Assembly (NCBI GenBank): GCA_037189525.1 | Contig: JBBCJC010000005.1 | Coordinates: 672,001-736,000, forward strand | DNA: 64,000 bases | Direction: 5' to 3' | From: Gemmatimonadales bacterium | GTDB taxonomy: Bacteria; Gemmatimonadota; Gemmatimonadetes; Gemmatimonadales; GWC2-71-9 | Shown here: piece by piece, positions 30,317 through 64,000 of the stretch | How positions within the stretch are numbered: position 1 is the first letter of the stretch | How the letters are laid out: each line of letters starts with the position of its first letter | Translations under genes and position numbers: made by a program | Notes under the pieces: model-generated | Database searches by the model: none | Told to the model about the DNA's origin: nothing | Seen by the model: only the letters and a program-made list of their open reading frames with translations

Positions 30317-30389
<73 letters not shown>

Positions 30390-30406
30390 GTCGTTCCTCG
30401 TATCGA

Positions 30407-30478
30407 TGACCCCAACGGGAATCGAACCCGTATTACCACCTTGAAAGAGTGGTGTCCTAACCGTTAGACGATGGGGCC
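30407..30478 (-). tRNA. tRNA-Glu(TTC)
   Basis: GGCCCCA.../TGGGGTC-A; arm CCACT-CTTTCAA-GGTGG; GTTCGAT. Confidence 0.95.
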
Positions 30479-30495
30479 GGGGTCGCTCGGTCGAG

Positions 30496-30568
<73 letters not shown>

Positions 30569-30597
30569 ATATATGTCGTACCCACTGCCTTACTCCA

Positions 30598-30670
30598 CAG
30601 GCCCGGAGGGAATCGAACCCCCAACCCCCGGTTTTGGAGACCGGTGCTCTACCAGTTGAGCTACGGACCT
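30598..30670 (-). tRNA. tRNA-Trp(CCA)
   Basis: AGGTCCG.../CGGGCCT-G; arm CCGGT-CTCCAAA-ACCGG. Confidence 0.95.
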
Positions 30671-30708
30671 AAGCCCACCTTATCCTCGCCCCACCAACTT
30701 CCTGCGAG

Positions 30709-30783
30709 GGTGGCTGACGGGAATCGAACCCGCAACCTCCGGAACCACAATCCGGCGCTCTAACCGATTGAGCTACAACCACC
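30709..30783 (-). tRNA. tRNA-His(GTG)
   Basis: G-1 plus GTGGTTG.../CAGCCAC-C; arm CCGGA-TTGTGGT-TCCGG. Confidence 0.95.
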
Positions 30784-50118: not shown

Positions 50119-51671
50119 CCCAGGAACCCGTGACCACCGCCATCGGCAATACCAATCCGGTCGCCATCGGCTTCTTCCTGGCGTTCATCTCGCTCACGTT
50201 GGGCATTACGTATTGGGCCGCCCGTCGAACCAAGACAACCGAGGAGTTCTTCGCCGCCGGACGCTCGATCAGCGCGGGCCAGAACGGCTGGGCCCTGGCC
50301 GGCGACTACATGAGCGCCGCGTCGTTTCTCGGCATCGCCGGCCTGGTCGCGACCACCGGCTTCGACGGCCTGATCTATTCGACCGGCTGGCTGGTCGGCT
50401 GGCCGGTGGTGCTGTTTCTGATTGCCGAGCCGCTCAGAAACTTGGGCAAATACACCTTCACCGACGTGGTCGCCCTGCACCGTCGGTCCAAGCCGATTCG
50501 TGTCGCGGCTGCAATCGGGACGCTGGCGACCGTGACGCTCTATCTGATCGCGCAGATGGTCGGCGCCGGCGGTCTGATCCGCCTGATGTTCGGGATCAAC
50601 TACGAAGCGGCCATCGTGCTGGTCGGCGCGGTAATGATCCTCTACGTGCTTGCCGGCGGGATGATCGCGACGACCTGGGTCCAGATCGTCAAAGCGGTGC
50701 TGCTCATTTCGGGCGCCACCATCCTGGTCGGGCTCGTACTGTTCCGCTTCGGGATGAGCCCCACCGCGCTCTTTGCCGCGGCGGCCGACCGGTTCGGCCA
50801 GGGTGTCCTGGCTCCGGGCCGATTGGTCACCAATCCCTGGGATGCGGTCTCGCTCGGCATGGCGCTGATGTTCGGCACTGCCGGGCTGCCCCATATTCTG
50901 ATGCGATTCTTCACAGTGCCGGATGCGCAGGCAGCGCGGAAGTCGGTTTTCTATGCGACTGGACTGATCGGGGCGTTTTACCTGCTCACGTTCGTGATCG
51001 GTTTCGGCGCCATGGTGCTGGTCGGACCCGACACCATTCGCGGCGTGGACGCCGGCGGCAACATGGCCGCGCCCCTGTTAGCCGAGGCGCTCGGCGGTAC
51101 GGCGTTTCTCGGCTTCATTGCCGCGGTGGCGTTTGCGACTATTCTGGCGGTGGTGGCCGGATTGACGCTGTCGGGCGCGGCGGCCCTCTCGCACGATCTC
51201 TGGGTCAATGTGGTGCGAGACGGCCATGCCACCAATCGCGAACAACTGGGTGTGGCGCGGGTGGCGACCATCCTGCTGGGGATCGTCGCCGTCTTGCTGG
51301 GCATCGTGTTCAAGGGGCAGAACGTCGCCTTCATGGTTTCGCTGGCCTTTGCCATCGCAGCAAGCGGCAACTTCCCGGCGTTGTGCCTGGCCGTCTTCTG
51401 GCGCCGTGCGACCACGACCGGCCTGCTCGCCAGCATGATCATCGGGACGATCACGACGCTGGCGCTGATCTACCTCTCGCCCACGATCCAGGTCGACATT
51501 CTGGGCAACACGTCCGCGCCGTTTCCACTCAAGAACCCGGCTGTCATCACGATTCCGCTTTCGTTCCTGGTCGGCGTCCTGGCATCGCTTGCCACGCAGC
51601 AACGGAGCGCGGACGAGATCCTTCGGTTCGAGGAGCGGGAGCGCCAGATGCACTGGGGCGACGGCGCCTGA
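50115..51671 (+). CDS. actP: Cation/acetate symporter (SSS family)
   Basis: 'QNGWALAGDYMSAASFLG', 'AEPLRNLGKYT', 'GTAGLPHILMRF', 'VAFATILAVVAGL'. Confidence 0.92.
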   Translation: MTQEPVTTAIGNTNPVAIGFFLAFISLTLGITYWAARRTKTTEEFFAAGRSISAGQNGWALAGDYMSAASFLGIAGLVATTGFDGLIYSTGWLVGWPVVLFLIAEPLRNLGKYTFTDVVALHRRSKPIRVAAAIGTLATVTLYLIAQMVGAGGLIRLMFGINYEAAIVLVGAVMILYVLAGGMIATTWVQIVKAVLLISGATILVGLVLFRFGMSPTALFAAAADRFGQGVLAPGRLVTNPWDAVSLGMALMFGTAGLPHILMRFFTVPDAQAARKSVFYATGLIGAFYLLTFVIGFGAMVLVGPDTIRGVDAGGNMAAPLLAEALGGTAFLGFIAAVAFATILAVVAGLTLSGAAALSHDLWVNVVRDGHATNREQLGVARVATILLGIVAVLLGIVFKGQNVAFMVSLAFAIAASGNFPALCLAVFWRRATTTGLLASMIIGTITTLALIYLSPTIQVDILGNTSAPFPLKNPAVITIPLSFLVGVLASLATQQRSADEILRFEERERQMHWGDGA

Positions 51672-51734
51672 GGTAGCGCTGGCACCACTCGTTCCATTCG
51701 GGCATCTTTGGAGACTCTTCTACCGGGATGCCCG

Positions 51735-53354
51735 ATGTCTCACCTCACCAAGGTCGCCGTGCTCGCGGCCGTGGCCACCGGGGCGGCAGCGCCCCTCGCT
51801 GCTCAGACCGCAGCCCTGCTCGATTCGACCTTTCGGGAATGGAACAGCACCACCGGACCGGGGTGCACCGTCGGCGTCGATTTCAACGGGCAGCGCACCA
51901 CCCGCGCGTATGGTATGGCCAATCTCGAGTACGGGATTGCGCTCCGGCCCAATTCCATCGTCGAGTCCGGATCGGTGGCCAAACAGTTCGCCACTGCGGC
52001 GGCCGCCCTGCTCCATATTCGCGGCCGGCTGAACCTCGACGACGATATCCGTAAGTACCTGCCGGAGCTCAAGGACTTTGGCACACCTATCACGATCCGG
52101 CAGCTCTTCAGCCACACCAGCGGGCTGCGCGACCAGTGGGCGCTGCTAGGCCTTCAGGGCATCGGACCGGGTCAGGCGGTCCACACCCTGCCCTGGATCC
52201 TCGATCTGGCATCACACCAGGAGGATCTCAACTTCACCCCTGGCAGCCATCACCTCTACAGCAACATGGGGTACGTCCTGGCCGCCATCATCATGGAGCG
52301 GGTCCTGGGCGAACCCTTTGCCCGGTTTTCCGAGCGGGAGTTCTTCGTGCCGCTCGGAATGACGCGGACCCAGTGGCGTGACGACTACCGAAGGATCGTT
52401 ACAGATCGGGCCACGGCCTACGCGCGCGAAGGGAACGCCTGGGTGCAGGACATGCCGTTCACCATGGTGCACGGCAATGGCGGCCTCCTCTCCACGGTGG
52501 ACGACATGCTTCGCTGGAACGAAGCGCTGACCAAGGGCACCATCCCCGGTGGCGCCGAGTTGGTTCGGCTGCTCGAAACGCCCCCGACCCTGACCGACGG
52601 TACCACGATTCGCTACGCGCTCGGCTTGAGCGTCGACGATTTCCGGGGCACCCGAATGGTGAGCCATGGCGGCGCCACCGCCGGCTATCGTACCTATCTG
52701 GCCCGCTGGCCGGATCGTCAGCTGTCGATTGCAGTCCTGTGTAATGCCGCTCAAGCCAATCCGACGGCATACACCACGCAGATCGCCAGCCGGCTCCTGA
52801 ACGTCCCTGCCGGGCGCGAGGCCCCGTCGGCGCCGGTTGCCATCAGCCGCGCCGAGTTGGAACCATTGGTGGGAGTCTATCGGGATTCGACCAATGATCA
52901 GATCGTCCGTGTGACGATGTCGGGCGATCAGCTGACGGCTGCTCCTGGCGGCCTGCTGGTGCATCTGGGCGATCGGCGCTTCTGGAACGCCAACGCGGGC
53001 GAGTTGCGGTTCATTGCCTCGGGGTCGACCTGGAAGCTCGAACGGCCGCAAGACGGGTGGGGCCACTTCTCGCGTGACGAGGCGCCGCCTACGGTCCGCT
53101 CCAGCGACTATGTGGGTCGGTACCGGAGCCCGGAGCTCGAGGTCACGTATGAGGTCGTCTCGGATTCAGCCGGGGGACTCACGCTCAAGGTCCGACGTGC
53201 GGGCAACCTACCGCTCCGTCCCGCCTACACGGATGGCTTTGCGGCGGGTGGAGGACGAACCATTCGTTTCACCCGGGATCGCCGCGGTACAGTCACCGGC
53301 TTCCGCGTATTTGCCGGCCGAGCACTCGGCGTTCAATTCGCCATCATCCAATAA
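51735..53354 (+). CDS. Serine hydrolase (beta-lactamase class C-like), secreted
   Basis: 'GSVAKQF', 'YSNMGY', 'SHGGATAGY'; paralogue of 46796-48448. Confidence 0.9.
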   Translation: MSHLTKVAVLAAVATGAAAPLAAQTAALLDSTFREWNSTTGPGCTVGVDFNGQRTTRAYGMANLEYGIALRPNSIVESGSVAKQFATAAAALLHIRGRLNLDDDIRKYLPELKDFGTPITIRQLFSHTSGLRDQWALLGLQGIGPGQAVHTLPWILDLASHQEDLNFTPGSHHLYSNMGYVLAAIIMERVLGEPFARFSEREFFVPLGMTRTQWRDDYRRIVTDRATAYAREGNAWVQDMPFTMVHGNGGLLSTVDDMLRWNEALTKGTIPGGAELVRLLETPPTLTDGTTIRYALGLSVDDFRGTRMVSHGGATAGYRTYLARWPDRQLSIAVLCNAAQANPTAYTTQIASRLLNVPAGREAPSAPVAISRAELEPLVGVYRDSTNDQIVRVTMSGDQLTAAPGGLLVHLGDRRFWNANAGELRFIASGSTWKLERPQDGWGHFSRDEAPPTVRSSDYVGRYRSPELEVTYEVVSDSAGGLTLKVRRAGNLPLRPAYTDGFAAGGGRTIRFTRDRRGTVTGFRVFAGRALGVQFAIIQ

Positions 53355-53363
53355 AGAAACGTT

Positions 53364-53389
53364 AGGCCCCTCGGGAAAGCGAGGGGCCT
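53364..53389. terminator. Hairpin at the junction with the low-GC island
   Basis: AGGCCCCTCG-ggaaag-CGAGGGGCCT. Confidence 0.65.
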
Positions 53390-53427
53390 CATGAAAGGTT
53401 AGCTCCAGCAGCGGGAAAGGGACTCTG

Positions 53428-54111
53428 TCACCTGAGCAGACGCTCTACATGAGTGCCAAGAGGGTTCTCTAAAATGCGCCGAGCGAGTATCCCGGACATC
53501 CTAGCGGCCGCGAAACTTACACCACTATAGACCTGCTGACCTCCGCCCAAGGATCTAGCCAACAATTGGTGTCCTTTACACGACAACTCAATATCGTCTT
53601 CCGGTGAATAGACGAAATTTTCCGTTTGGCTTGGGCCTGCAAGACGGACCCCAAACACGTTGTCAAAATACGCGGGATAACACTCATTACCACCTCCCCC
53701 AGCGGCAGCGATCAATATTACCCCGGCACTCCTTGCCATTGAACACGCCCGGTACAAGTGACCAATAGCCACTTGCGACGTCGACCCAAGACTGAGATTA
53801 ATTATGTCTGCTCCATACCGTACCGCATAGTCGATTGCCTCAGCAACCACGACCATCGATGTTCTGAGTTTGCGGCCGAACACCTTAAGTGGAACAATCG
53901 TTGTATGGGGACACTCGCGGAGGATGATGTCAATACAGGCAGTTCCATGTCCATGGAAATCAGGCGCACCCAGTTGAACACGAGCCAGCCGTCTCCCATA
54001 CTCATCAACAAACGACGCACCAGGCAAGACACCGGGCTCACTGACGTAAGGATCCCAGCCGCTATCAACCACTGCGATCAACACTTTCCCCTGAGCGCCT
54101 GGGAAAGTCAT
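53428..54111 (-). CDS. Minimal S8 subtilisin-like peptidase (candidate leader peptidase)
   Basis: 'IAVVDSG' (Asp), 'HGHGTAC' (His), 'INLSLG', 'SGVSFAAA' (Ser); no signal peptide or prodomain. Confidence 0.85.
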   Translation of the reverse strand: MTFPGAQGKVLIAVVDSGWDPYVSEPGVLPGASFVDEYGRRLARVQLGAPDFHGHGTACIDIILRECPHTTIVPLKVFGRKLRTSMVVVAEAIDYAVRYGADIINLSLGSTSQVAIGHLYRACSMARSAGVILIAAAGGGGNECYPAYFDNVFGVRLAGPSQTENFVYSPEDDIELSCKGHQLLARSLGGGQQVYSGVSFAAARMSGILARRILENPLGTHVERLLR

Positions 54112-55308
54112 TCAACCAGCCTTGTCCGCCGCGTCCAAGGACAGGGCTGGCCGAGCCACATACCTCCGGACGCGGCGTGCGATAATTGCTCCTATACGCC
54201 CTGACTCCGTAACAACATTCGCACGAACGGACAAGCCGTTCCGAAGCCAATCTAACGAATCTGCTACGCGGTCTACATCGACCTCAACACGAAACACCCC
54301 AGCCTCCGCGACCCGGTATTGAGCAGTTGTACGATCCGCTGGCTGAAATCCAACGTAGCGAACGTGCCCGTCCAACCTTAGATTCGCCCCTCCCCGATTA
54401 GGAAGAACATCGATACGAACACGAGCACCGAGTGGAATCTCCGCGATATCCCGCTCCTTGAAGAACGCGGTTACCGACCATTTCCCACTCTCGCCAATCT
54501 GCGCAATAGCTTCACCTTCAGCAACAACTCGGCCTACCGCGTGCCTAAGTCCGTCGGAAAGAATAACTCCGTCAACTGGCGCAACAACCAGACTCCTGCG
54601 GAGCGAGGACTCGACTAGACGTCTACGCGCACGAGCCGCATCAACCGCAGACAATCCGCGAGATATCCGAAGGCTATCTGCCCTTAACGCAACCAGCGAT
54701 GCCCTAGCTGCCGAAATAGCGGCCAATGCAGCACGTAAATCTGCAACTGCAATATCCAACGCAACATGCTGGCCCTCCGAATACGTTGCCAGAACCGAGT
54801 CGACATCAGCAACGACGTTATGGTCCGTTAGGACAGACCTTAACCGAGCACGATGGGCAACGGCTATTGCCTCCGCACGAGCGACTTCGAATTCCTGACG
54901 ACTGATCTCTTGGGGGATCGACAGTCGCACGCCATCTAGCGACAATCCCGCATCGCGCAAGTCTGCATCAGCAAGAGAGCCTTCGAGCAACAGCATTTCA
55001 CTATCTAGTGAGAACAATGAATCCCCGGCTTCCACTACCTCGCCGCCATCGGCATACACCGCCACGATACGCCCGCTTCTCTGAGCCCGAACATCAACCA
55101 CCTGATGGTGCTCGATAAAACCTGATCCTGCTGACACTAAGTCGATCGGCAACAAAAAAAGGCACGCCGCAATCGCCAAAAACGAAATCACAATCCAACG
55201 GCGAATTGCCCGTACGATTCGCTCCACCATACGGACGACAGGCCCATTGAGGGTGATTTCCTGACCTACCCCCCTCTCGCCATCTCGGATCAATCGGCCT
55301 GAAGACAT
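54112..55308 (-). CDS. HlyD-family secretion adaptor
   Basis: N-terminal TM, 'SGRIVAVYA..GEVVEAGD.L', coiled coil, 'VVAPVDGVI', 'LRNGLS'. Confidence 0.85.
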   Translation of the reverse strand: MSSGRLIRDGERGVGQEITLNGPVVRMVERIVRAIRRWIVISFLAIAACLFLLPIDLVSAGSGFIEHHQVVDVRAQRSGRIVAVYADGGEVVEAGDSLFSLDSEMLLLEGSLADADLRDAGLSLDGVRLSIPQEISRQEFEVARAEAIAVAHRARLRSVLTDHNVVADVDSVLATYSEGQHVALDIAVADLRAALAAISAARASLVALRADSLRISRGLSAVDAARARRRLVESSLRRSLVVAPVDGVILSDGLRHAVGRVVAEGEAIAQIGESGKWSVTAFFKERDIAEIPLGARVRIDVLPNRGGANLRLDGHVRYVGFQPADRTTAQYRVAEAGVFRVEVDVDRVADSLDWLRNGLSVRANVVTESGRIGAIIARRVRRYVARPALSLDAADKAG

Positions 55309-55310
55309 AA

Positions 55311-57023
55311 CTATGATCCGTTCTCGACCAGGTTCGCGGCAATCCTGCGACGCGGGTCGCGGGTCTCTGACGTCCCTTCAAACGTGTATACTCTGTCAGC
55401 AAACTGAGCTATTGGAATCCGATGGGTAACCATGACAACGGTGGTTCCACTCAACCAACTTCTCATTCGCGACAACACCTCAGCCTCTGTCTTTGTGTCA
55501 AGCTGCGACGTCGGCTCATCGAGAAGCACAAGAGGCGCTCGTCGCGCCAAGGTCCGGGCTAACGCAATACGCTGCCTTTCTCCACCAGACAATGCCACAC
55601 CTCCCTCTCCGACGCGCGTATTCAAACCGTTTGGAAGGCGTTGACAGAGGTCATGAAGCCCACAGACTTCAACAACGTCAGAAACAACATTTCTCGAGAT
55701 TGGAAAGGGCGCGAAAGTGATGTTGTCCACAATCGACCCCCGAATGAGCCCATACTCCTGCCACATAACAGCGATTGAATGGCGCCAATCTGTCAGATCC
55801 ATATCGTTAAGCGACATTCCATCCACATAGACGCCCCCTGACCCCGCCTCAGCAAACCTTGCAGCAAGCCGAATGAGCGTCGTCTTGCCTACTCCAGTCG
55901 TACCCATGACGACGGAAACAGTACCGGATGGAAACGCCAAATCAGGGAATACCAATACCGACTCCGGTGACTCCAATACCACTTCAACACCCGAAAAAGA
56001 TAGACTCGGAGCCGTTGAGCGCGCCGGACGACCTCGCTCAACTCGTCGAACGTCTTCAGGCACGCTGTCGATGTATTCAAATACCCGAGATGCAGCAACC
56101 GCCGTATGCTGAAGGTTCTGAACCAATCCGACCCACTGTCCGACAGGACCTACAAGAAGCCCGAGATATGCGGAGAACGACAGAAACTCCCCCAACGAGA
56201 TTACATCAGCAAGAATCATGTTCCATGCTACCCACGACAAGTACAGCATTGAGACAGCCCGAATAAGGCCATGAGCAAAGCCAAACCCGGCACCAAGTGC
56301 AGACGCACTTACGGAAGTCGATGCAGTAGCAGTATGTAACGCAATCGATTCCTTCACCAATGCCGCCTCAACACCGAGCGCCTTCGTAGTAGCTACTTGG
56401 GCAAGAACGCTTACCTGATGAGATGTCAACTCGGCCGAGGCTTCGATCGCTCGTCGATGCGCCGCGCGAAGTACCCGTGCAGACGCAATCGTCAAAGCAA
56501 CAGTGGCGACAACAGACACGAACGCGATTGACGCGAGGCGCCCGTCAATTGCGAAGAGCAATGGCGGAATAATGAGGAGAAACGGCGTTGTTCCAACGAT
56601 TGTATCTAACACGCCAACCAGGGAGCCGAGGGAAGCACGAACATCCCCGAACCGACTCGCAATCTGCCCTACTTGATTACCATCGTGAAATCGAATCGGC
56701 AGATCATGAACGTGAGCGAGGAGCCGTGCCCCAATCTCCGCGTTCAATCGCGCCATCAGCACGGCACTGAGATAAGATCGAACAAACGTCACTAGGGATG
56801 CAAACATTGTGACAACAAATGACGCCGCAAGCACAACAGCAAGCAGCCCAGTACTCCCAGCTGGGTACACGCTATCCACTAGAAGTTTTGTGAAGTAGGG
56901 TGCCGGCAGCGCCAAAAGCGATATCGATACGGTCAGACCAGCAACCCGTGCCATCGCACGCCAATGGCTCTTGGCCAACCGCGCAAGCCTAAACAATAGC
57001 CCGAGCGGAGAACTAGCATCCAT
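55311..57023 (-). CDS. ABC exporter (TMD + NBD), no C39 peptidase domain
   Basis: 'GTTGVGKTT', 'LSGGERQRIALAR', 'LLDEPTSQLD', 'VTHR'; N-terminal TM domain. Confidence 0.93.
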   Translation of the reverse strand: MDASSPLGLLFRLARLAKSHWRAMARVAGLTVSISLLALPAPYFTKLLVDSVYPAGSTGLLAVVLAASFVVTMFASLVTFVRSYLSAVLMARLNAEIGARLLAHVHDLPIRFHDGNQVGQIASRFGDVRASLGSLVGVLDTIVGTTPFLLIIPPLLFAIDGRLASIAFVSVVATVALTIASARVLRAAHRRAIEASAELTSHQVSVLAQVATTKALGVEAALVKESIALHTATASTSVSASALGAGFGFAHGLIRAVSMLYLSWVAWNMILADVISLGEFLSFSAYLGLLVGPVGQWVGLVQNLQHTAVAASRVFEYIDSVPEDVRRVERGRPARSTAPSLSFSGVEVVLESPESVLVFPDLAFPSGTVSVVMGTTGVGKTTLIRLAARFAEAGSGGVYVDGMSLNDMDLTDWRHSIAVMWQEYGLIRGSIVDNITFAPFPISRNVVSDVVEVCGLHDLCQRLPNGLNTRVGEGGVALSGGERQRIALARTLARRAPLVLLDEPTSQLDTKTEAEVLSRMRSWLSGTTVVMVTHRIPIAQFADRVYTFEGTSETRDPRRRIAANLVENGS

Positions 57024-57144
57024 GATGTATCATATGTGTACGTAGCGTATGCCAAGGCGATCGGCTAGGAAGAGTATCCCCAGGGGGGTGTAAGCCAGAC
57101 TCGATCCACAGCGGCAGGAGGTTAGTCACTAACCGCGGCATCGG

Positions 57145-58005
57145 CTAGGCATCCCGAAGACGAACGTCGGCTCCCACCTCGGACAACATAAAAGCACAGA
57201 AAGCCTCATCTGCAACTGTCAGCCCAATCCGATTGCTGGTCATATGAAGCAGCGACGCGGCCGTCCAATCACACACTTTCTCAGCTTGTACCCCTCCCAG
57301 TAGTTCTGTGAGCCCAAGCCGGTATTGCTCGCAGGAAGTTCTATAAGAATCGAGCGCGTCCGACATTGACTGATTCGCAATCAGGCAGTCTGTAGTCGCG
57401 CCAACGATCTCCTCTATCCGACCGCGCTGCTCTGGAAAGCTAGCTTCAAAACGACTGCGAAGTTGTGCAGCCCGCTCTGAAAGCGCACGCCCCCCGAGAC
57501 AACCCTCAAAGTATCGTTGAAAGAAAGCCTTACGCCCCTTCTGCAGTGCGTAAGCAATTACCAGCATTGCAAGCAACCCCTGACCAATCACGTTTGCTCT
57601 GGTTCGCTCGGGCCGTTCCAAGTATATGCAAGCGAACCGAGTCGATGCCACAAAATGCCGCTCAGCAAACTCCAGTGCCGCTACCCCCCCGTAACGCACC
57701 ACTTCAGGCTCATAAGCAACCCACGAAGGCTGCGGTGCAGCCGCGTTCGGTGCCACACTTGCGCGAACTCTGCCGACCTGCAACAATAGCTGCTCGATAT
57801 CCCGTCGGCTAGTTTCCTGTTCGACCATACAAAAACGATATCGAACATGGGGGCCAGTTTCATCGAAATATCTAACAAAAAACCAGTGCGCCGTCGCCAT
57901 GGTCGACAAGGCAAGTGCATTAGCTACGGCCGCGACTTGACCATCCACATCGGTCCCATATATGTCCCGTGAACAGGGCAAATGTATACTCAGCCATTGT
58001 TGCAT
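57145..58005 (-). CDS. Stand-alone lanthipeptide dehydratase elimination domain (Lant_dehydr_C)
   Basis: 'WFFVRY...GPHVRYR', 'YEPEVVRYGG', 'SLLHMTSNRIG'; ATG lies 1 nt after the lanB stop. Confidence 0.88.
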   Translation of the reverse strand: MQQWLSIHLPCSRDIYGTDVDGQVAAVANALALSTMATAHWFFVRYFDETGPHVRYRFCMVEQETSRRDIEQLLLQVGRVRASVAPNAAAPQPSWVAYEPEVVRYGGVAALEFAERHFVASTRFACIYLERPERTRANVIGQGLLAMLVIAYALQKGRKAFFQRYFEGCLGGRALSERAAQLRSRFEASFPEQRGRIEEIVGATTDCLIANQSMSDALDSYRTSCEQYRLGLTELLGGVQAEKVCDWTAASLLHMTSNRIGLTVADEAFCAFMLSEVGADVRLRDA

Positions 58006-58006
58006 C

Positions 58007-60775
58007 TTACCCCAACGTAGTTCGGACCGGCAGCGGAGACCCCGGAATAGTAAGGTGCACCACCAACTCAGTCGCCAAATGCCCTTCCGCACACTCAGCG
58101 GACTCCTCGCACCTTGGCCAACGCTCTTCAACGTGCAACACACTAATCCCTGCGGATGCAATCATCCGACAGAACAGACGGACAAACAGGGGATTCACAA
58201 AGTCAATGTACTGGGGTTTCCAGCGCTCGGCCCATGCTGCGGCCTGTCGACGTGCTTCATAATCGTCACCGCGACCAGGGGCTTCAGCCTCTTCTTTTGG
58301 CGTGGTAGCTTCGCCCTTGTCCACCTTCGGCATCGGCCTAATCCTAACAAAGCAGTCAAGCGGCAGACTTGAGTCCACTAGCCACCGATGAAATCGCTCA
58401 AAGAACTCCGCATTACCTTCGCCCGATCTCTGAGCTGGAACGATCGACGAGGAAAACATCCACACCTGTCTCGATAGAACAAGGGCACCATCAAACGTAA
58501 AACGCGGCCGATGCACGATGCCGTCAGGCACCGGAGCAGCGACCGAGACTTCGTTGGGGATTGGAACTGAAACCGTGGACGCTGGTACGAACCGCGCCAA
58601 CAGCTGGTAGAGCGGCGGCTGCCGCTGAATATTCAGAAACCCAAGATCCACCGGAACAACGCGACGACCAGTTGCCTTGTGGCGGAGTATTAAAGAGTTC
58701 TGATCTACTGGATGCCGCCACACCTCGAGGTCATGACACTGAACGCTTCCCTCCGAACACGAGGTCTCTGTCGAGGGATGGAGAATTTCGTAAGGCAAAA
58801 CCTTCTCCCGCAGATTGCCATTAAAGAAAGCCCCTCCCGATATCTCAGCATAGATGGTATCATCGTCATCGTCTTCGATAAAAGCATCACCGACGAGACG
58901 ACGACGGATCTTTTCCTCAAAAAGGTATAGAAAACGTGAGTAGTACTTTCCGAACCCGACAACAAGTCGTCCATCTTGTACGATCGCCTGAGCCGGAAGT
59001 CCTTCTGGCTGAACAAGCTGAACGAATGCTCCGAGAGACACCCTGTCTTGCGGTCTCTCCATAACTGCCCCGCCTTGGTTCAGCGCGGCGACTAACTCGT
59101 TCGTCGTTATGTCAGCCGCTTCGCACCCGTTCGCGCCGACCCACTTATCTACAAATAGCTTCCGGAGGTTATCCCTCGCAGCAGCTGTCGCCATCGTATA
59201 ATCACGCATCGAAGTAGTATGTGCATCGGGACGCTGTCGCTGAGGCCCCGATGCCTTATCACCACGAAGCCTCTCCAATCGTGGCTTCATTACCTCACGC
59301 GCATAGTCCTCGTAGTAAGTGAGCAAGGGTACAGGAGTAGCTCCTTGGTAGTAGAAATCATAGAACGACCTCATACTCGCCTGCTCATCACGTGGCCATC
59401 CTGTTGTAAGTAGCAGAGTAGCGAAACGCCTGAGTGTCCCCTGCCATGAGCGCTCGGGATCCTGATCTACCACGCGCGCACTGGCAGCGGCTGTAGCATC
59501 CTCGAAGAAAAGCTCCGGGAGCCCCTGGAGAGGTGCTTTTAGCGCTGCAAGGACGTCCGCCACTAGGCTGCGAACTCTACCGGCTAAAAGCTGACGGTCG
59601 GTGCCATTCGCCACCTCCATCGCCCGGTGTAGCTCCATCTGACTCCGAATAAACGTAGCAACAATACCTCCAGCCGGAGTTCCACTTGCCTCCGCCCAAC
59701 GAAGAGTTCGCACATCCCAATCAGACGACGTAGTGCGCGCAATCGGACGGAACCGAATCAACCCAACTCCGATCAGCTTTCTTACGTAGGCATCTGCCTC
59801 TTCGACTGACGCATCGATGGATTTACAATCTGATATATCGCGGACCACTTGATCGTAGGTCCTCTCAGCTGTTGCCGACAGCACTCTTAACACCTCGTCA
59901 AGAGCAGCATTCGGTGCCACTCGTTGGAAGACTTCGCGTCCGCCAATATCAGCCAAGAAGACTGGGCCGTTACCGGACATCTGAAGGGTTGGATTGAGCT
60001 CAACCGTAAGCCCACCAAAGATGGTGGGCGTTGTAGTCATCATTGACCACAGCACACCCAGCAAAGCCGCATTCGGACGAACCTGTGACTGCAATTCATG
60101 TGGCGTTCCGCACAATCGTAGGCGCATATCGCCGTCATCAGCAGCAGATAGAACTGATCCTGGTACTACGACACACAAGCGACCAAAGGGAGTCGCCTTC
60201 ATTCCCATGCGTGAGACATACTTCAGAAGCCCTTGCTCCGTCTTCTCATCACGGCGTTTTGGCCTGTCAGGCTCGTAACGAAGGATAGCTTCCATTAAAG
60301 ACTGACTTGTCAAGGCAACAGTCGCAAGCAGGTTCTTGTCCCGAGCAAGAACGCTGAGCTTAGCTCGGACTTCCTTCATAGAATCTGGAAATGACGACAC
60401 CATCTGCGCGTAAAGTCGGTCACGGTCTTTCAGTCGACCCAGATAGGTGTTGACCAGATCCCTTGTATCACTTGGCAACTCCCCAAGGATGAGCTGCAGG
60501 CCACCATCGGGTGGCTGAATACGCTTAAATAGCTGACGGCGTACGTTAATCATATTCCGACGAGCCGACGCGATCGAACTAGCCCCGACGGCTTTGTGGA
60601 TACCGTCTGAAACCGCCTGAGCAGTACCCTTCAACTGTAGCTCGATCGCGCGAATGCCTTCCAAGGTACTGACGAGCGACGAGGCTCGTAGTCGCTCAAC
60701 AGCCTCAATCGTCAGCGCACCGGCCCGGCATATGTAGGTAGAGGAGATCATATCGAAATTCTCAAACATAGACAT
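58007..60775 (-). CDS. lanB: Lanthipeptide dehydratase glutamylation domain (LanB N-terminal part)
   Basis: 'LLKYVSRMGMKATPFG', 'LNPTL', 'SRFLYLF', 'NGNLR', 'PRFTFDGALVLSRQVW', 'KPQYIDF'. Confidence 0.9.
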   Translation of the reverse strand: MSMFENFDMISSTYICRAGALTIEAVERLRASSLVSTLEGIRAIELQLKGTAQAVSDGIHKAVGASSIASARRNMINVRRQLFKRIQPPDGGLQLILGELPSDTRDLVNTYLGRLKDRDRLYAQMVSSFPDSMKEVRAKLSVLARDKNLLATVALTSQSLMEAILRYEPDRPKRRDEKTEQGLLKYVSRMGMKATPFGRLCVVVPGSVLSAADDGDMRLRLCGTPHELQSQVRPNAALLGVLWSMMTTTPTIFGGLTVELNPTLQMSGNGPVFLADIGGREVFQRVAPNAALDEVLRVLSATAERTYDQVVRDISDCKSIDASVEEADAYVRKLIGVGLIRFRPIARTTSSDWDVRTLRWAEASGTPAGGIVATFIRSQMELHRAMEVANGTDRQLLAGRVRSLVADVLAALKAPLQGLPELFFEDATAAASARVVDQDPERSWQGTLRRFATLLLTTGWPRDEQASMRSFYDFYYQGATPVPLLTYYEDYAREVMKPRLERLRGDKASGPQRQRPDAHTTSMRDYTMATAAARDNLRKLFVDKWVGANGCEAADITTNELVAALNQGGAVMERPQDRVSLGAFVQLVQPEGLPAQAIVQDGRLVVGFGKYYSRFLYLFEEKIRRRLVGDAFIEDDDDDTIYAEISGGAFFNGNLREKVLPYEILHPSTETSCSEGSVQCHDLEVWRHPVDQNSLILRHKATGRRVVPVDLGFLNIQRQPPLYQLLARFVPASTVSVPIPNEVSVAAPVPDGIVHRPRFTFDGALVLSRQVWMFSSSIVPAQRSGEGNAEFFERFHRWLVDSSLPLDCFVRIRPMPKVDKGEATTPKEEAEAPGRGDDYEARRQAAAWAERWKPQYIDFVNPLFVRLFCRMIASAGISVLHVEERWPRCEESAECAEGHLATELVVHLTIPGSPLPVRTTLG

Positions 60776-61270
60776 TTCACGAAGTCGACCGAGCCTTGTA
60801 ACGAGCGTAGCTGTAGGAGCACTGAACTCGCCTAGTCTACCTGAACGTGCCCGATCTACAACGAATCGACAGACTCATGGGAATCAATGCCATCACCTGA
60901 AGCACCATTCGCGGTTTCACCTTGATGGACGGTTCAAGTTACTGGGCCCAATACAGCACATACAGAGCGGCCTGCAATATCTCTATGATTTGCATCACCG
61001 CCCACCTCACGCCACCGGCTGCATAAAACCACCCTTCGATCCCACCAGCGGTGGGCGTCACCACTCCTTTACCGGTGGCAACCTTGGATCGCAATGGCTT
61101 TGCCGAATTTTAGGTAGCTCGCCTCGCGGAAACATTAGATCAAGAACGATGTCGCAGTCCATTGCCGACAAGTATCGCGAGAGGTCGCTACGACCATAAG
61201 AACACCACGCATCAAGACCTGCTGAAGCCAGGCGAGGCGCAGCAGACAATCCGCCTATGAGGCTAAGGAA

Positions 61271-61612
61271 CTAGCACGGGGATATGTCGCTACAACCGCA
61301 ACTACATTGCGTAAACTCGCCTGCACCGACGGTGGTTTGGCACCCACAAGCCGTAGTACACGATATTTCCGTACAAAAGTGCCCTTGACTACACCGCCAA
61401 TCCATACTCTCGGTGCCCGTCCCAGTACACGGATTGCACGTATTCATTCCACAGCTGTTCGTTCCGCAGGTGTCGCCACATGTACCGCAGGTCTGAAGAC
61501 AGGTGCTGCCGACGTGCGACGCACCGCTGTAACCCTCTACCGTTAAATCAGCAGGCGACGTATCGAATGACTCGACTTCGAGGTCATCCAGGTTCAGCTT
61601 GAGCTTTGCCAT
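61271..61612 (-). CDS. lanA: Lanthipeptide precursor with pinensin-type leader and very Cys/Ser/Thr-rich core
   Basis: Leader 'MAKLKLNLDDLEVESFDT...TVEG'; the following 86 aa contain 16 Cys, 15 Thr and 10 Ser; lies between lanB and lanC. Confidence 0.9.
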   Translation of the reverse strand: MAKLKLNLDDLEVESFDTSPADLTVEGYSGASHVGSTCLQTCGTCGDTCGTNSCGMNTCNPCTGTGTESMDWRCSQGHFCTEISCTTACGCQTTVGAGEFTQCSCGCSDISPC

Positions 61613-61910
61613 TGCTCTACCCTCAAGTTATAAGATTATTAGACTGTGTATTGCTGACCTCGCCTGACAATCCAGTGAACCCGACGACCCTTTCGTACCG
61701 CCAGTCGCCATCATGTGTATGTTTAGCGTACCGAAGCGTACCAATTAGGAGAGGACGCTTACACGGCTAGCGCCAACCAAGACACCGAACACAGTACCCC
61801 CTAATCGGACACCGCTGAGCCTACTGCGATCCGTCGTACGTACTTGCGTACCTTAAGAAGTAATCTTAGAATTGCGAAATCGACTAACCTGAGAATGGAA
61901 CTTACCCGCC

Positions 61911-63881
61911 ATGTTAGTGCTGTCAAGTAGTGAGGCAACCTGGGCATTGCCAGCCGCGCTAGACATTGCGCACCGTATTGGTTCGCAGGCGATTTGGGAC
62001 TCTACCTCAAAATCATGTACGTGGAATATTCGTTCGGTTGATTGGAAGCGGCCGTCATCAAGAGTCAGCGTAGTCTCGCCCGCAGGCATCGACTTATACC
62101 AGGGCGTATCTGGAATAGTCGTATTCCTCGCCGCTGCCTACCCCTACGCCCCTTCTGCACATATGCTCCGAGTAATTCGTGGTGCATGCAGATTTCTCTC
62201 GACAGGGGCCCAATCTCTTCCACCGGGCGCGTGCAGCTTTTTCGTTGGGAGAGTAGGAGTTGCTTGGGCACTCCTGTCGGCTGGTAGGTCACTCGGCGAT
62301 GAGAGGTGGAACGCGCCTGCGAAGAAAATTCTAGAGTCATTGGCCGGCCACGAGAAAAGTGACACAGCACTTGATGTTGTTGGGGGCGCTGCCGGCGCTA
62401 TTCCGCCACTGATTCGCATGGGACAAGATCTCCGAAGCGACCGCCTACAGGATACAGCATTACGCTATGCCGACCGGTTAATATCCACAGCAAGACGGGG
62501 ACCTTCTGGATGGTCAATCCCTTCAACGAGAATCTCGCACGTTCGTGACCTTACTGGACTTGCCCACGGCGCCGCCGGAATGACACGTGCTCTCCTTGAA
62601 GCCTATCTCCTGTCAGGACGCACCAAGTACCTTTACGGATCCGAGGAGAGCGCTGCGTTCGAGAATAGCTACTATAGTGACCACGAACAGAATTGGTTCG
62701 ATTTCCGCCATGACTCTCTCGGAGAGCTCGAAGCCGAAGGGCGCCTCAGCCAGCTCCGAACGAATCCTTCTCTTCGGAGTGCCATTCAGCCATACAGAGG
62801 GCGTTTCATGGCCGCATGGTGTCACGGAGCGCCTGGAATCTTGATGGTTCGCCTTCGTACGGCACAAGTTCAGAATACGTCAACGGCTATTGCTGCCGCT
62901 TGGAGGGCAGTCCCTGCAACTCTCAGATCCGTTGAACGGATTACCTCGGGATTCAGTCTCTGTCACGGGGTTTGTGGAAATGCTGACGCCCTAATTTTTT
63001 CGGCCGAAGTCCTTTCAGCGCCTGAAGTCCGTCAAAAGGCAATGAACGCACTCCTCCACGGCGTCAAGGAGTACGTTGGTACCGGACGGTCATGGCCCTG
63101 CGGCACGGTTGACGGATTGGTTGACCCGAGCCTAATGCTAGGTGAGGCGGGAATAGGGCTTTCTCTGCTACGAGCCGTGGACCGTAACCTCGAATCGCCG
63201 CTTTTGCCATCAGGGGTTAATGTCGTCAAACCCCATTCATCCATGGCAGTCGATGACGACCTATTAGCCGAAGATCGGAGCCTTTTCTTTAGTCAAAGCC
63301 TGATGCAATCACCTGACCTGATTGCAACGGCCAATCGGTTGCGAGACCCGGCGTCGGGCATTAGCGCTGCCCGCTCGTTACTCTTGGCAGTACACGAAAG
63401 TGTACCGCCGACTGATGCACATGTAGCTTACGTTCGGTCGACAGAAATTGCGCGGTATGAAGTTGCACGAGACCATAGCCGTGTTGCTATTTTTCTCAGC
63501 TCGGTTGATCAACCTCCCGATATCGATTGGCTCTCGGCTCGTATCGTTTTCGCAGAAACGACTAAAGTTATTCCCTCCCCTGAGTCTGATAGTCATCAAG
63601 CCCCACCAGAGGATGGAACGCTAATCTTTGCCGACCTAAACCAGATATATGTACGCCCGATCGGTCGCTTTCCCCTGCTTGTACTTCAGGCTATTGAGGG
63701 ACACGATGGACTAGCAGATATCTGTTCATTCGTGGCGTCAAATCTTCCGAACGGGGATCCGAGCGACCCACGCCTTGTACAGAAAGTCATAGATCAGTTG
63801 ATGTCTTTTCATAGGGCGGCGATTGTTTCGTGCGCTCCACTTATGACTCGACTTGATCGCAGCAACGCGCAGTTCCCTTGA
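61911..63881 (+). CDS. lanC: LanC-type lanthionine cyclase with ~200-aa C-terminal extension
   Basis: 'LYQGVSG', 'DVVGGAAG', 'GLAHGAAG', 'WCHGAPG', 'LCHGVCG', 'LMLGEAG'. Confidence 0.9.
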   Translation: MLVLSSSEATWALPAALDIAHRIGSQAIWDSTSKSCTWNIRSVDWKRPSSRVSVVSPAGIDLYQGVSGIVVFLAAAYPYAPSAHMLRVIRGACRFLSTGAQSLPPGACSFFVGRVGVAWALLSAGRSLGDERWNAPAKKILESLAGHEKSDTALDVVGGAAGAIPPLIRMGQDLRSDRLQDTALRYADRLISTARRGPSGWSIPSTRISHVRDLTGLAHGAAGMTRALLEAYLLSGRTKYLYGSEESAAFENSYYSDHEQNWFDFRHDSLGELEAEGRLSQLRTNPSLRSAIQPYRGRFMAAWCHGAPGILMVRLRTAQVQNTSTAIAAAWRAVPATLRSVERITSGFSLCHGVCGNADALIFSAEVLSAPEVRQKAMNALLHGVKEYVGTGRSWPCGTVDGLVDPSLMLGEAGIGLSLLRAVDRNLESPLLPSGVNVVKPHSSMAVDDDLLAEDRSLFFSQSLMQSPDLIATANRLRDPASGISAARSLLLAVHESVPPTDAHVAYVRSTEIARYEVARDHSRVAIFLSSVDQPPDIDWLSARIVFAETTKVIPSPESDSHQAPPEDGTLIFADLNQIYVRPIGRFPLLVLQAIEGHDGLADICSFVASNLPNGDPSDPRLVQKVIDQLMSFHRAAIVSCAPLMTRLDRSNAQFP

Positions 63882-64000
63882 GGAATGACGCAGCCTGATC
63901 CACGTTTGCGGTGTTCCGTCACCTTAAGGGGCTAAGATTATCCAATGACGTCGGCCACAGTCGATCCGTGTTCCGACGCGGGCGCGGAAGGATGCCTAGC

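Follow-up and report, generated by a model that had tools for sequence, protein, structure and literature searches.

A low-GC insertion near the right end of the window, by which we mean the whole 64,000-nucleotide stretch of Gemmatimonadales DNA analysed here (contig JBBCJC010000005.1), carries seven genes that, judged from their sequences, are an intact class I lanthipeptide gene island, a variant of the pinensin type. All seven open reading frames (ORFs) were found where the original prediction, a note made from the DNA letters, had placed them, on the strands it had assigned and with lanC divergent from the rest. The genes, and the insertion that holds them, are as follows.

61271..61612, minus strand: LanA precursor, 113 amino acids (aa), with a presumed leader of about residues 1–27 and an 86-aa core
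58007..60775, minus strand: LanB glutamylation half, 922 aa (PF04738, E 1e-28)
57145..58005, minus strand: LanB elimination half (glutamyl lyase), 286 aa (PF14028, E 5e-32), canonical NisB/MibB type
61911..63881, plus strand: LanC, whole ORF, 656 aa (PF05147, E 1e-49)
61911..63215, plus strand: LanC cyclase barrel, LanM-like branch, residues 1–435 of 656
63228..63881, plus strand: LanC C-terminal module (about residues 440–647), predicted helical DUF2063-like domain plus winged helix of a RiPP (peptide made on the ribosome and then modified post-translationally) recognition element (RRE), as in MNIO partner proteins
55311..57023, minus strand: ABC exporter, C39-less, 570 aa (PF00664 and PF00005)
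54112..55308, minus strand: HlyD-type periplasmic adaptor, 398 aa (PF13437, E 2e-17)
53428..54111, minus strand: minimal S8 protease, QhpE-like, 227 aa (PF00082, E 2e-12)
53364..53389, no strand: GC-rich hairpin terminator at the left insertion edge, where the host hydrolase gene and the S8 gene converge
53335..64000, no strand: low-GC insertion, running about 420 nt past the window end to a SusD/SusC pair

Pfam matches above cut-off were obtained for six of the seven genes, all but LanA, and included the PF04738, PF14028, PF05147, and PF00082 matches for which the original prediction had proposed a search. The assignment to class I is borne out by the presence of both LanB domains, a LanC with zinc ligands, and a Ser/Thr/Cys precursor. 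The proposed split LanB with a pinensin-type leader is likewise borne out, PF04738 and PF14028 lying in separate ORFs and LanA scoring 21.3 bits against the pinensin leader model NF038180, slightly short of its 24-bit cut-off. The junctions predicted at 0–2 nt measured 1 nt (58007/58005), 2 nt (55311/55308), and 0 nt (54112/54111), and the remaining gaps in the block are wider (121, 495, and 298 nt). The claim of a complete maturation and export pathway held for the seven intact genes but not for the outer-membrane step, as no TolC lies within the cluster; 25 OEP-domain matches elsewhere in the host genome (G000) are TolC candidates. The prediction of an undescribed product from a lineage with few characterised RiPPs needs one correction: the cluster is no isolated case but belongs to a large and conserved branch. 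The closest relative found for the window proteins is about 41% identical. A Gemmatimonadota host, also predicted, agrees with the match of the LanB N terminus of the same-class genome G307 to a named Longimicrobium record. An assembled contig was identical to window positions 51000–64000; it is a possible source of the window DNA and hence not independent. Of the components of the island, the split LanB is the least new, pinensin and SapT being precedents. The unusual parts, which the earlier note had not recognised, are the fusion of LanC to a DUF2063/RRE module, the 16-Cys core, and the QhpE-like protease.

LanC and its fused C-terminal module

In LanC, PF05147 spans residues 57–426, and the Cys-Cys-His zinc ligands (C304, C351, and H352) and the catalytic His and Asp (H219 and D155) are intact. 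These five residues were kept in 51 to 53 of 53 relatives; here and below, conservation counts come from alignments with relatives from loci bearing a long LanC. The top NCBIfam match was the LanM model TIGR03897, and the AlphaFold2 model (pLDDT 92) was matched by Foldseek to CuvL, LanCL, LicM2, and NisC. Beyond the papers cited, the roles given to LanB and LanC residues are background on these families.

The tail of LanC (about 210 residues) is predicted to fold like the MNIO partner proteins, with DUF2063-like helices followed by an RRE. Folded alone it gave a pLDDT of 85, and this predicted model was aligned by VIA-align over its whole length with NGO1945 (3DEE; Z 12.2, root-mean-square deviation (rmsd) 4.8, 186 residues aligned) and with TglI (8HCI; Z 11.9, rmsd 5.1, 184 aligned), whereas its second half aligned with the lasso-peptide RRE TbiB1 (Z 9.4, rmsd 2.1, 84 aligned). 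Foldseek placed 3DEE first and TglI second, with none at E ≤ 0.001 (best 3DEE, E 8e-3), and a PDB sequence search with a profile of the tail returned nothing relevant. The HvfC model NF050145 matched the tails of 25 of 55 relatives; among 62 full-length proteins, NGO1945_C was found in 15 and PqqD in 11 (E ≤ 0.1), and the window tail matches neither. At E thresholds of 0.001 and 1e-30, the tail profile recovered 687 and 142 clusters, respectively, and 130 of the best 150 contained LanC sequence, the other 20 (124–323 aa) probably being fragments. The MNIO partners NGO1945, TglI, HvfC, and BufC (DUF2063 plus RRE, "PME type 1/2"; PMC12452194) share the two-domain fold but are described as standing alone, whereas the window module is fused to a lanthionine cyclase. 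No MNIO (PF05114) was found in the 98.1%-complete host genome, for which a positive control worked, or among the 74 neighbouring ORFs scanned at related loci.

The predicted complex of tail and leader scored 0.50, compared to 0.01 for the best control, with at least 75% contact agreement between runs and a partner pLDDT of at least 48. It counts as a weak pass: of 157 solved pairs, 116 reached the mark used, as did 2 of 215 mismatched ones, but among the pairs that reached it only 18 solved ones, along with both mismatches, scored 0.60 or less, and the model may recall solved RRE–leader complexes. We infer that the LanC tail may bind the leader.

A fusion unique to this branch was considered and ruled out, because the Chitinophagaceae LanCs of loci L233 and L231 carry the tail too, matching the tail profile with hhalign probabilities of 90 and 92 (E about 1e-6; 2e-6 for L233). 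The tail of the 605-aa L233 protein also matches HvfC/DUF2063 Atlas models by structure (template-modelling score 0.61–0.68). Because this Chitinophagaceae LanC has the same tail, the fusion would be a property of the whole pinensin-type lineage, and with L233 as a proxy for Chitinophaga pinensis, PinC itself probably carries a DUF2063/RRE tail. A LanC tree with a midpoint root and low supports neither supported nor refuted a single clade of tailed LanCs. No paper on a LanC–DUF2063/RRE fusion was found, most of the subscription literature, including the original pinensin report, lying outside the coverage; term searches of two RRE surveys and of the MNIO-partner survey (PMC12452194), supplements excluded, gave no LanC fusion. 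The tail appears to have gone unremarked so far as a feature of pinensin-type LanCs.

Several LanC-like proteins differ from this arrangement. At L120:9116-11836 (G250:C1; P0143), LanC, tail, and S8 protease form one 906-aa ORF, and genome G250 has at least three such clusters; this triple fusion supports a functional coupling of the protease. At L176, the LanC ORF does not include the tail, which has an ORF of its own, and additional tail fragments are present; this locus is probably a broken or rearranged copy. At L230:7182-9203 (G474:C57), a 673-aa LanC-like protein with a weak tail match lies between ORFs of 2092+ and 2176 aa that resemble non-ribosomal peptide synthetases, and no LanB or leader match was found in that 17-kb region. 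The host genome encodes a second LanC-like protein (L003, G000:C2:574556-575656; about 460 aa) with a twin-arginine-like N terminus and no LanB nearby, which is probably unrelated to RiPPs.

Dehydratase, precursors, protease, and exporter

In the glutamylation half of LanB, R17, Y186, R189, K193, T195, D426, and R614 were kept in 29 to 30 of 30 relatives. In the lyase, which aligns to MibB (5EHK), R45, H53, R55, R57, Y98, E101, R104, H254, N258, and R259 were invariant in all 39. The SapT cluster (SptA, SptBa, SptBb, and SptC; PMC9011353, PMC9890492) is, like the window cluster, class I with a split LanB and a LanC, but in SptBb the catalytic His is missing, as is one Arg, Tyr is replaced by Lys, and the enzyme yields (E)-dehydrobutyrine (Dhb) (PMC9011353). 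A SapT-type, syn-eliminating lyase was ruled out for the window, His254 and Tyr98 being present and invariant (39/39). Because His254, Tyr98, and the Arg residues are all retained in the window lyase, with positions mapped onto SptBb by us, its product is predicted to be (Z)-Dhb. The lyase also passes the thiopeptide-type model TIGR03891, and the RRE region of the LanB N-terminal half matched the LanC-tail profile with a probability of only 1.5. The host genome has one PF04738 match and one precursor with this leader type. Five host tRNA genes at window positions 30317–30782, away from the island border, include both tRNA-Glu isoacceptors, the co-substrate of LanB.

The presumed core of the window LanA (from Tyr28) is 86 aa long and contains 16 Cys, 15 Thr, and 10 Ser, with a net charge of -5; its leader has no GG end. 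A homologue search with LanA found none, and relatives were reached via LanC neighbourhoods, where the leader pattern recovered 58 precursors in 28 loci, 51 of them with a GTVxG/A-type motif. The leader motif LxLxLxxLxVxSF is the best-conserved portion of the precursors, and 21 of 21 that were aligned matched NF038180 at E ≤ 0.1. After the motif, the 51 cores are 19–95 aa long with 2–19 Cys (median 8; nine or more in 23); 50 are net negative and none positive, and Ser plus Thr at least equal Cys in 49. It was found that 204 of 424 Cys are directly preceded by Ser or Thr, relative to a shuffle mean of 101 and with this number reached in 0 of 500 shuffles, an excess that is due to a Thr-Cys-x-x repeat. 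As a test of ring direction, Ser or Thr at -5 of Cys without Cys at -4 was counted; it was enriched over the 51 cores (0/500 shuffles), an enrichment that was lost when each locus contributed a single core (58/500). Known lanthipeptides have at most seven bridges (PMC11251773, PMC6165006), and eight rings were predicted in a survey limited to 100 aa (PMC11251773). At L154:12392-16879, eleven tandem precursors with a common leader and unrelated cores accompany a single cassette.

The ABC exporter has no C39 peptidase domain; the same was found in all five branch relatives tested, whereas the domain is present in both Bacteroidota tested. The likely leader peptidase, by family analogy, is the S8 protein. 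Its triad (D16, H55, and S199) is invariant in 17 of 17 relatives, and because only 15 residues precede the catalytic Asp, it has neither a signal peptide nor a prodomain. Its best NCBIfam model is that of QhpE, NF049966, at 129.6 bits, below the cut-off of 165, and the island has no qhp genes. QhpE, a cytoplasmic, single-turnover, subtilisin-like leader peptidase, and ElxP are precedents for cytoplasmic leader removal by S8 enzymes (PMC7876137, PMC10885120). QhpE is, as the window S8 would be, a small enzyme without a signal peptide that is coupled to an ABC exporter and has a thioether-cross-linked substrate.

Acquisition of the island and its wider branch

The GC content of the island is 0.543, compared to a mean of 0.656 (standard deviation 0.018) over 456 10-kb windows of the genome, and GC at third codon positions (GC3) is 0.50–0.59 in the seven island genes and 0.78–0.84 in four flanking genes. 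In the same-genus genome G005 the site is empty, with syntenic, 80–85% identical serine-hydrolase and SusD flanks about 130 nt apart, versus 11.1 kb here. Because of the low GC and GC3 and this empty site, gain of the cluster by horizontal transfer, as had been predicted, is well supported. No tRNA at the island borders, integrase-sized ORF within the island, or significant flanking repeat at its edges was found, a 7-nt word common to both edges being at chance level. Counts of sigma-70 promoters and terminators in the island did not exceed those in shuffles, and it contains no strong operator palindrome. A LanB query matched none of 21 same-genus genomes; because it also missed full-length LanBs of a different clade that a Pfam model found in the same-genus or same-family genomes G006, G023, and G036 (L011, L009, and L008), this absence speaks only for the present clade.

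Among 213 loci scanned, 61 have LanC and tail in one ORF after removal of 11 own-genome or duplicate loci, a set in which some redundancy may remain. Their partners include the lyase (40 loci), the LanB N-terminal half (36), the ABC exporter (30), a precursor found by the leader pattern (28), S8 (22), and HlyD (21). All five partner proteins are present at 14 of the 61, many loci being cut by contig ends, and S8 is present in all 17 loci with room beyond HlyD. The cassette usually runs from LanB-N through the lyase, LanC, precursor(s), ABC, and HlyD to S8. Named carriers are records of Gemmatimonadales, Longimicrobium, and Thermoanaerobaculia. For Longimicrobium terrae, a possible cultured carrier, antiSMASH gave three lanthipeptide regions (PMC7291104). 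In a phylum sample of 401 genomes, 11 matched the LanC alignment at 1e-40, and besides the host, G149, G250, G282, G307, and G400 have the tail. Most of the best 120 of 281 LanC homologues are about 640–780 aa long.

Relative to pinensin itself (Chitinophaga pinensis PinA, PinB1/B2, and PinC, the last being WP_012792925.1; family I 17, PMC7268733), the split LanB and a LanM-like LanC are common to both systems, as is the first half of the leader (supplement row for PinA; NF038180), and the Chitinophagaceae locus L233 combines a PinA-like precursor with a LanC that has the DUF2063/RRE-like tail. PinA, however, has a GG site and a core of about 26 aa with 2 Cys, and the pinensin-like loci L233 and L231 have a C39-ABC transporter, whereas in the window the exporter is a C39-less ABC protein with HlyD and the protease is separate. 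As read from its genes, this branch replaces the GG leader and C39 transporter of pinensin by a TVxG-type leader end, a C39-less ABC/HlyD pair, and a cytoplasmic QhpE-like protease. An intermediate between the two is the Bacteroidota cluster at L231:9460-10719 (G474:C65), which has three 103–113-aa precursors (at least two of them Tyr/Cys-rich), a tailed LanC, and a C39 transporter.

Proposed pathway and its alternatives

The reading that we favour, with a probability of about 0.75, is a horizontally acquired lanthipeptide pathway of class I that belongs to the pinensin-type lineage and comprises split-LanB dehydration, leader-guided LanC cyclisation, cytoplasmic leader removal, and export through host TolC. 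In this pathway the LanB N-terminal half would glutamylate Ser and Thr of the LanA core using host Glu-tRNA(Glu), and the separate lyase, with an anti-elimination site of the NisB/MibB rather than the SapT syn type, would eliminate glutamate to give dehydroalanine and (Z)-Dhb. The zinc-dependent LanC would then add Cys thiols to form (methyl)lanthionines while its fused DUF2063/RRE module holds the LxLxLxxLxVxSF leader. The cytoplasmic S8 protease would cut the leader near the TVxG motif, around Gly27, and ABC–HlyD with TolC would export the long, acidic, heavily cross-linked peptide in one step. This chemistry follows from knowledge of the families; the cleavage site, the number of rings, and the function we infer. 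The acidic cores and the lack of an immunity gene suggest a product other than a membrane-active antibiotic of the nisin kind.

Several observations count against this pathway. The NF038180 score of LanA is below the cut-off of 24 and covers only positions 1–13 of 28, and LanA lacks the Gly of the family GTVxG motif. The oxyanion Asn position of the S8 protease is Gly. The window LanC tail is divergent, with 12–23% identity to relatives, Atlas matches under 0.9, and by itself no Pfam or NCBIfam match. In the usual cassette the genes are co-linear, but here lanC is inverted, and lanB and lanC have weak Shine-Dalgarno sites. For pinensin, the action of PinB and PinC on PinA was described as unconfirmed in 2022 (PMC9680876).

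Metal binding is the main alternative role of the product. In this case cyclisation would be partial, leaving free thiols or disulfides in an acidic Zn- or Cu-binding peptide on a lanthionine scaffold. The consistently negative charge of the family cores and the tightly spaced CxC motifs in the window core are in keeping with such a peptide, and the fold family of the LanC tail serves Cys-rich copper-binding RiPPs (PMC12452194). A DUF3526 ABC-2 gene adjoins a pinensin-like cluster, and TonB-receptor-type genes adjoin at least 6 of 26 examined loci, a count made without a control; against it, the host genome has about 27 SusC-like loci, and the SusC/D pair beside the island adjoins the empty site too. 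Since nearly all cores have enough Ser and Thr to bridge every Cys, and the island has neither a metal-uptake gene nor a clear operator palindrome, we regard metal binding as rather unlikely. Similar doubt attaches to the proposal that the tail does not bind the leader and is structural, LanB-docking, or vestigial, with substrate recognition left to the RRE of LanB. Sequence conservation in the tail is low (33% mean column identity, without an invariant column), DUF2063-associated RREs lack a clear recognition motif (PMC12710340), RREs of thiopeptide LanBs may be vestigial (PMC7470986), and the tail–leader complex passed weakly. Yet all 61 loci retain the tail, as do Bacteroidota clusters that share the leader type, and it is the leader motif that is most conserved in the precursors.

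It is improbable that the island is a recent, silent, or decaying acquisition that makes no product in this host. Its codon bias is unadapted to the host, its gene order is rearranged, it has no regulator, its relatives are distant, and lanthipeptide operons of Gram-negative bacteria are often cryptic (PMC9680876). Nevertheless, the seven frames are open, the domains are full-length, catalytic residues are intact at about 33% identity to relatives, and lanA has a strong Shine-Dalgarno site. A thiopeptide- or MNIO-type cluster, to which the TIGR03891 match of the lyase and the resemblance of the LanC tail to MNIO partners might point, is very hard to reconcile with three findings: none of the seven genes encodes a YcaO protein, a dehydrogenase, or an MNIO; PF05114 is absent from the genome and from the neighbouring ORFs scanned at related loci; and the zinc ligands of LanC are intact.

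Under the favoured lanthipeptide pathway, a more far-reaching proposal, which we put forward tentatively and consider doubtful, is that an RRE-guided LanC processively installs up to 16 thioether rings in the 86-residue acidic core, compared to a known maximum of seven. If true, the products of the branch would form a widespread family of mini-proteins stapled by thioethers, which a substrate-tolerant synthetase of class I makes in Gemmatimonadota, Acidobacteriota, and further groups that are little cultured. In class I lanthipeptides, leader recognition by an RRE has been linked to LanB. An entire DUF2063/RRE module of the MNIO-partner type on a cyclase would be a case of a module reused by a different enzyme. 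The cores with 9–19 Cys surpass the seven rings known as well as one survey's prediction of eight (PMC11251773), and through them the upper limit to class I cyclisation is open to direct test.

The branch resembles the prochlorosins: the leader is conserved, the cores are hypervariable, and an enzyme set can have several precursors (as many as 11, at L154). One enzyme set acting on that many unrelated cores would be a useful tool for macrocycle engineering. Prochlorosins, in contrast, are class II with 2–3 Cys (PMC11251773), and the present host has a single precursor. Among the 26 loci examined for neighbouring genes, sigma-54 activator genes adjoin the cassette in three (L026, L146, and L149), and in three a nucleotidyltransferase gene (PF01909) lies between LanC and precursor (L136:6698-7417, L184:12280-12672, and L140:2552-3256). 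The L140 cassette also includes a methyltransferase gene, and both enzymes are possible tailoring enzymes.

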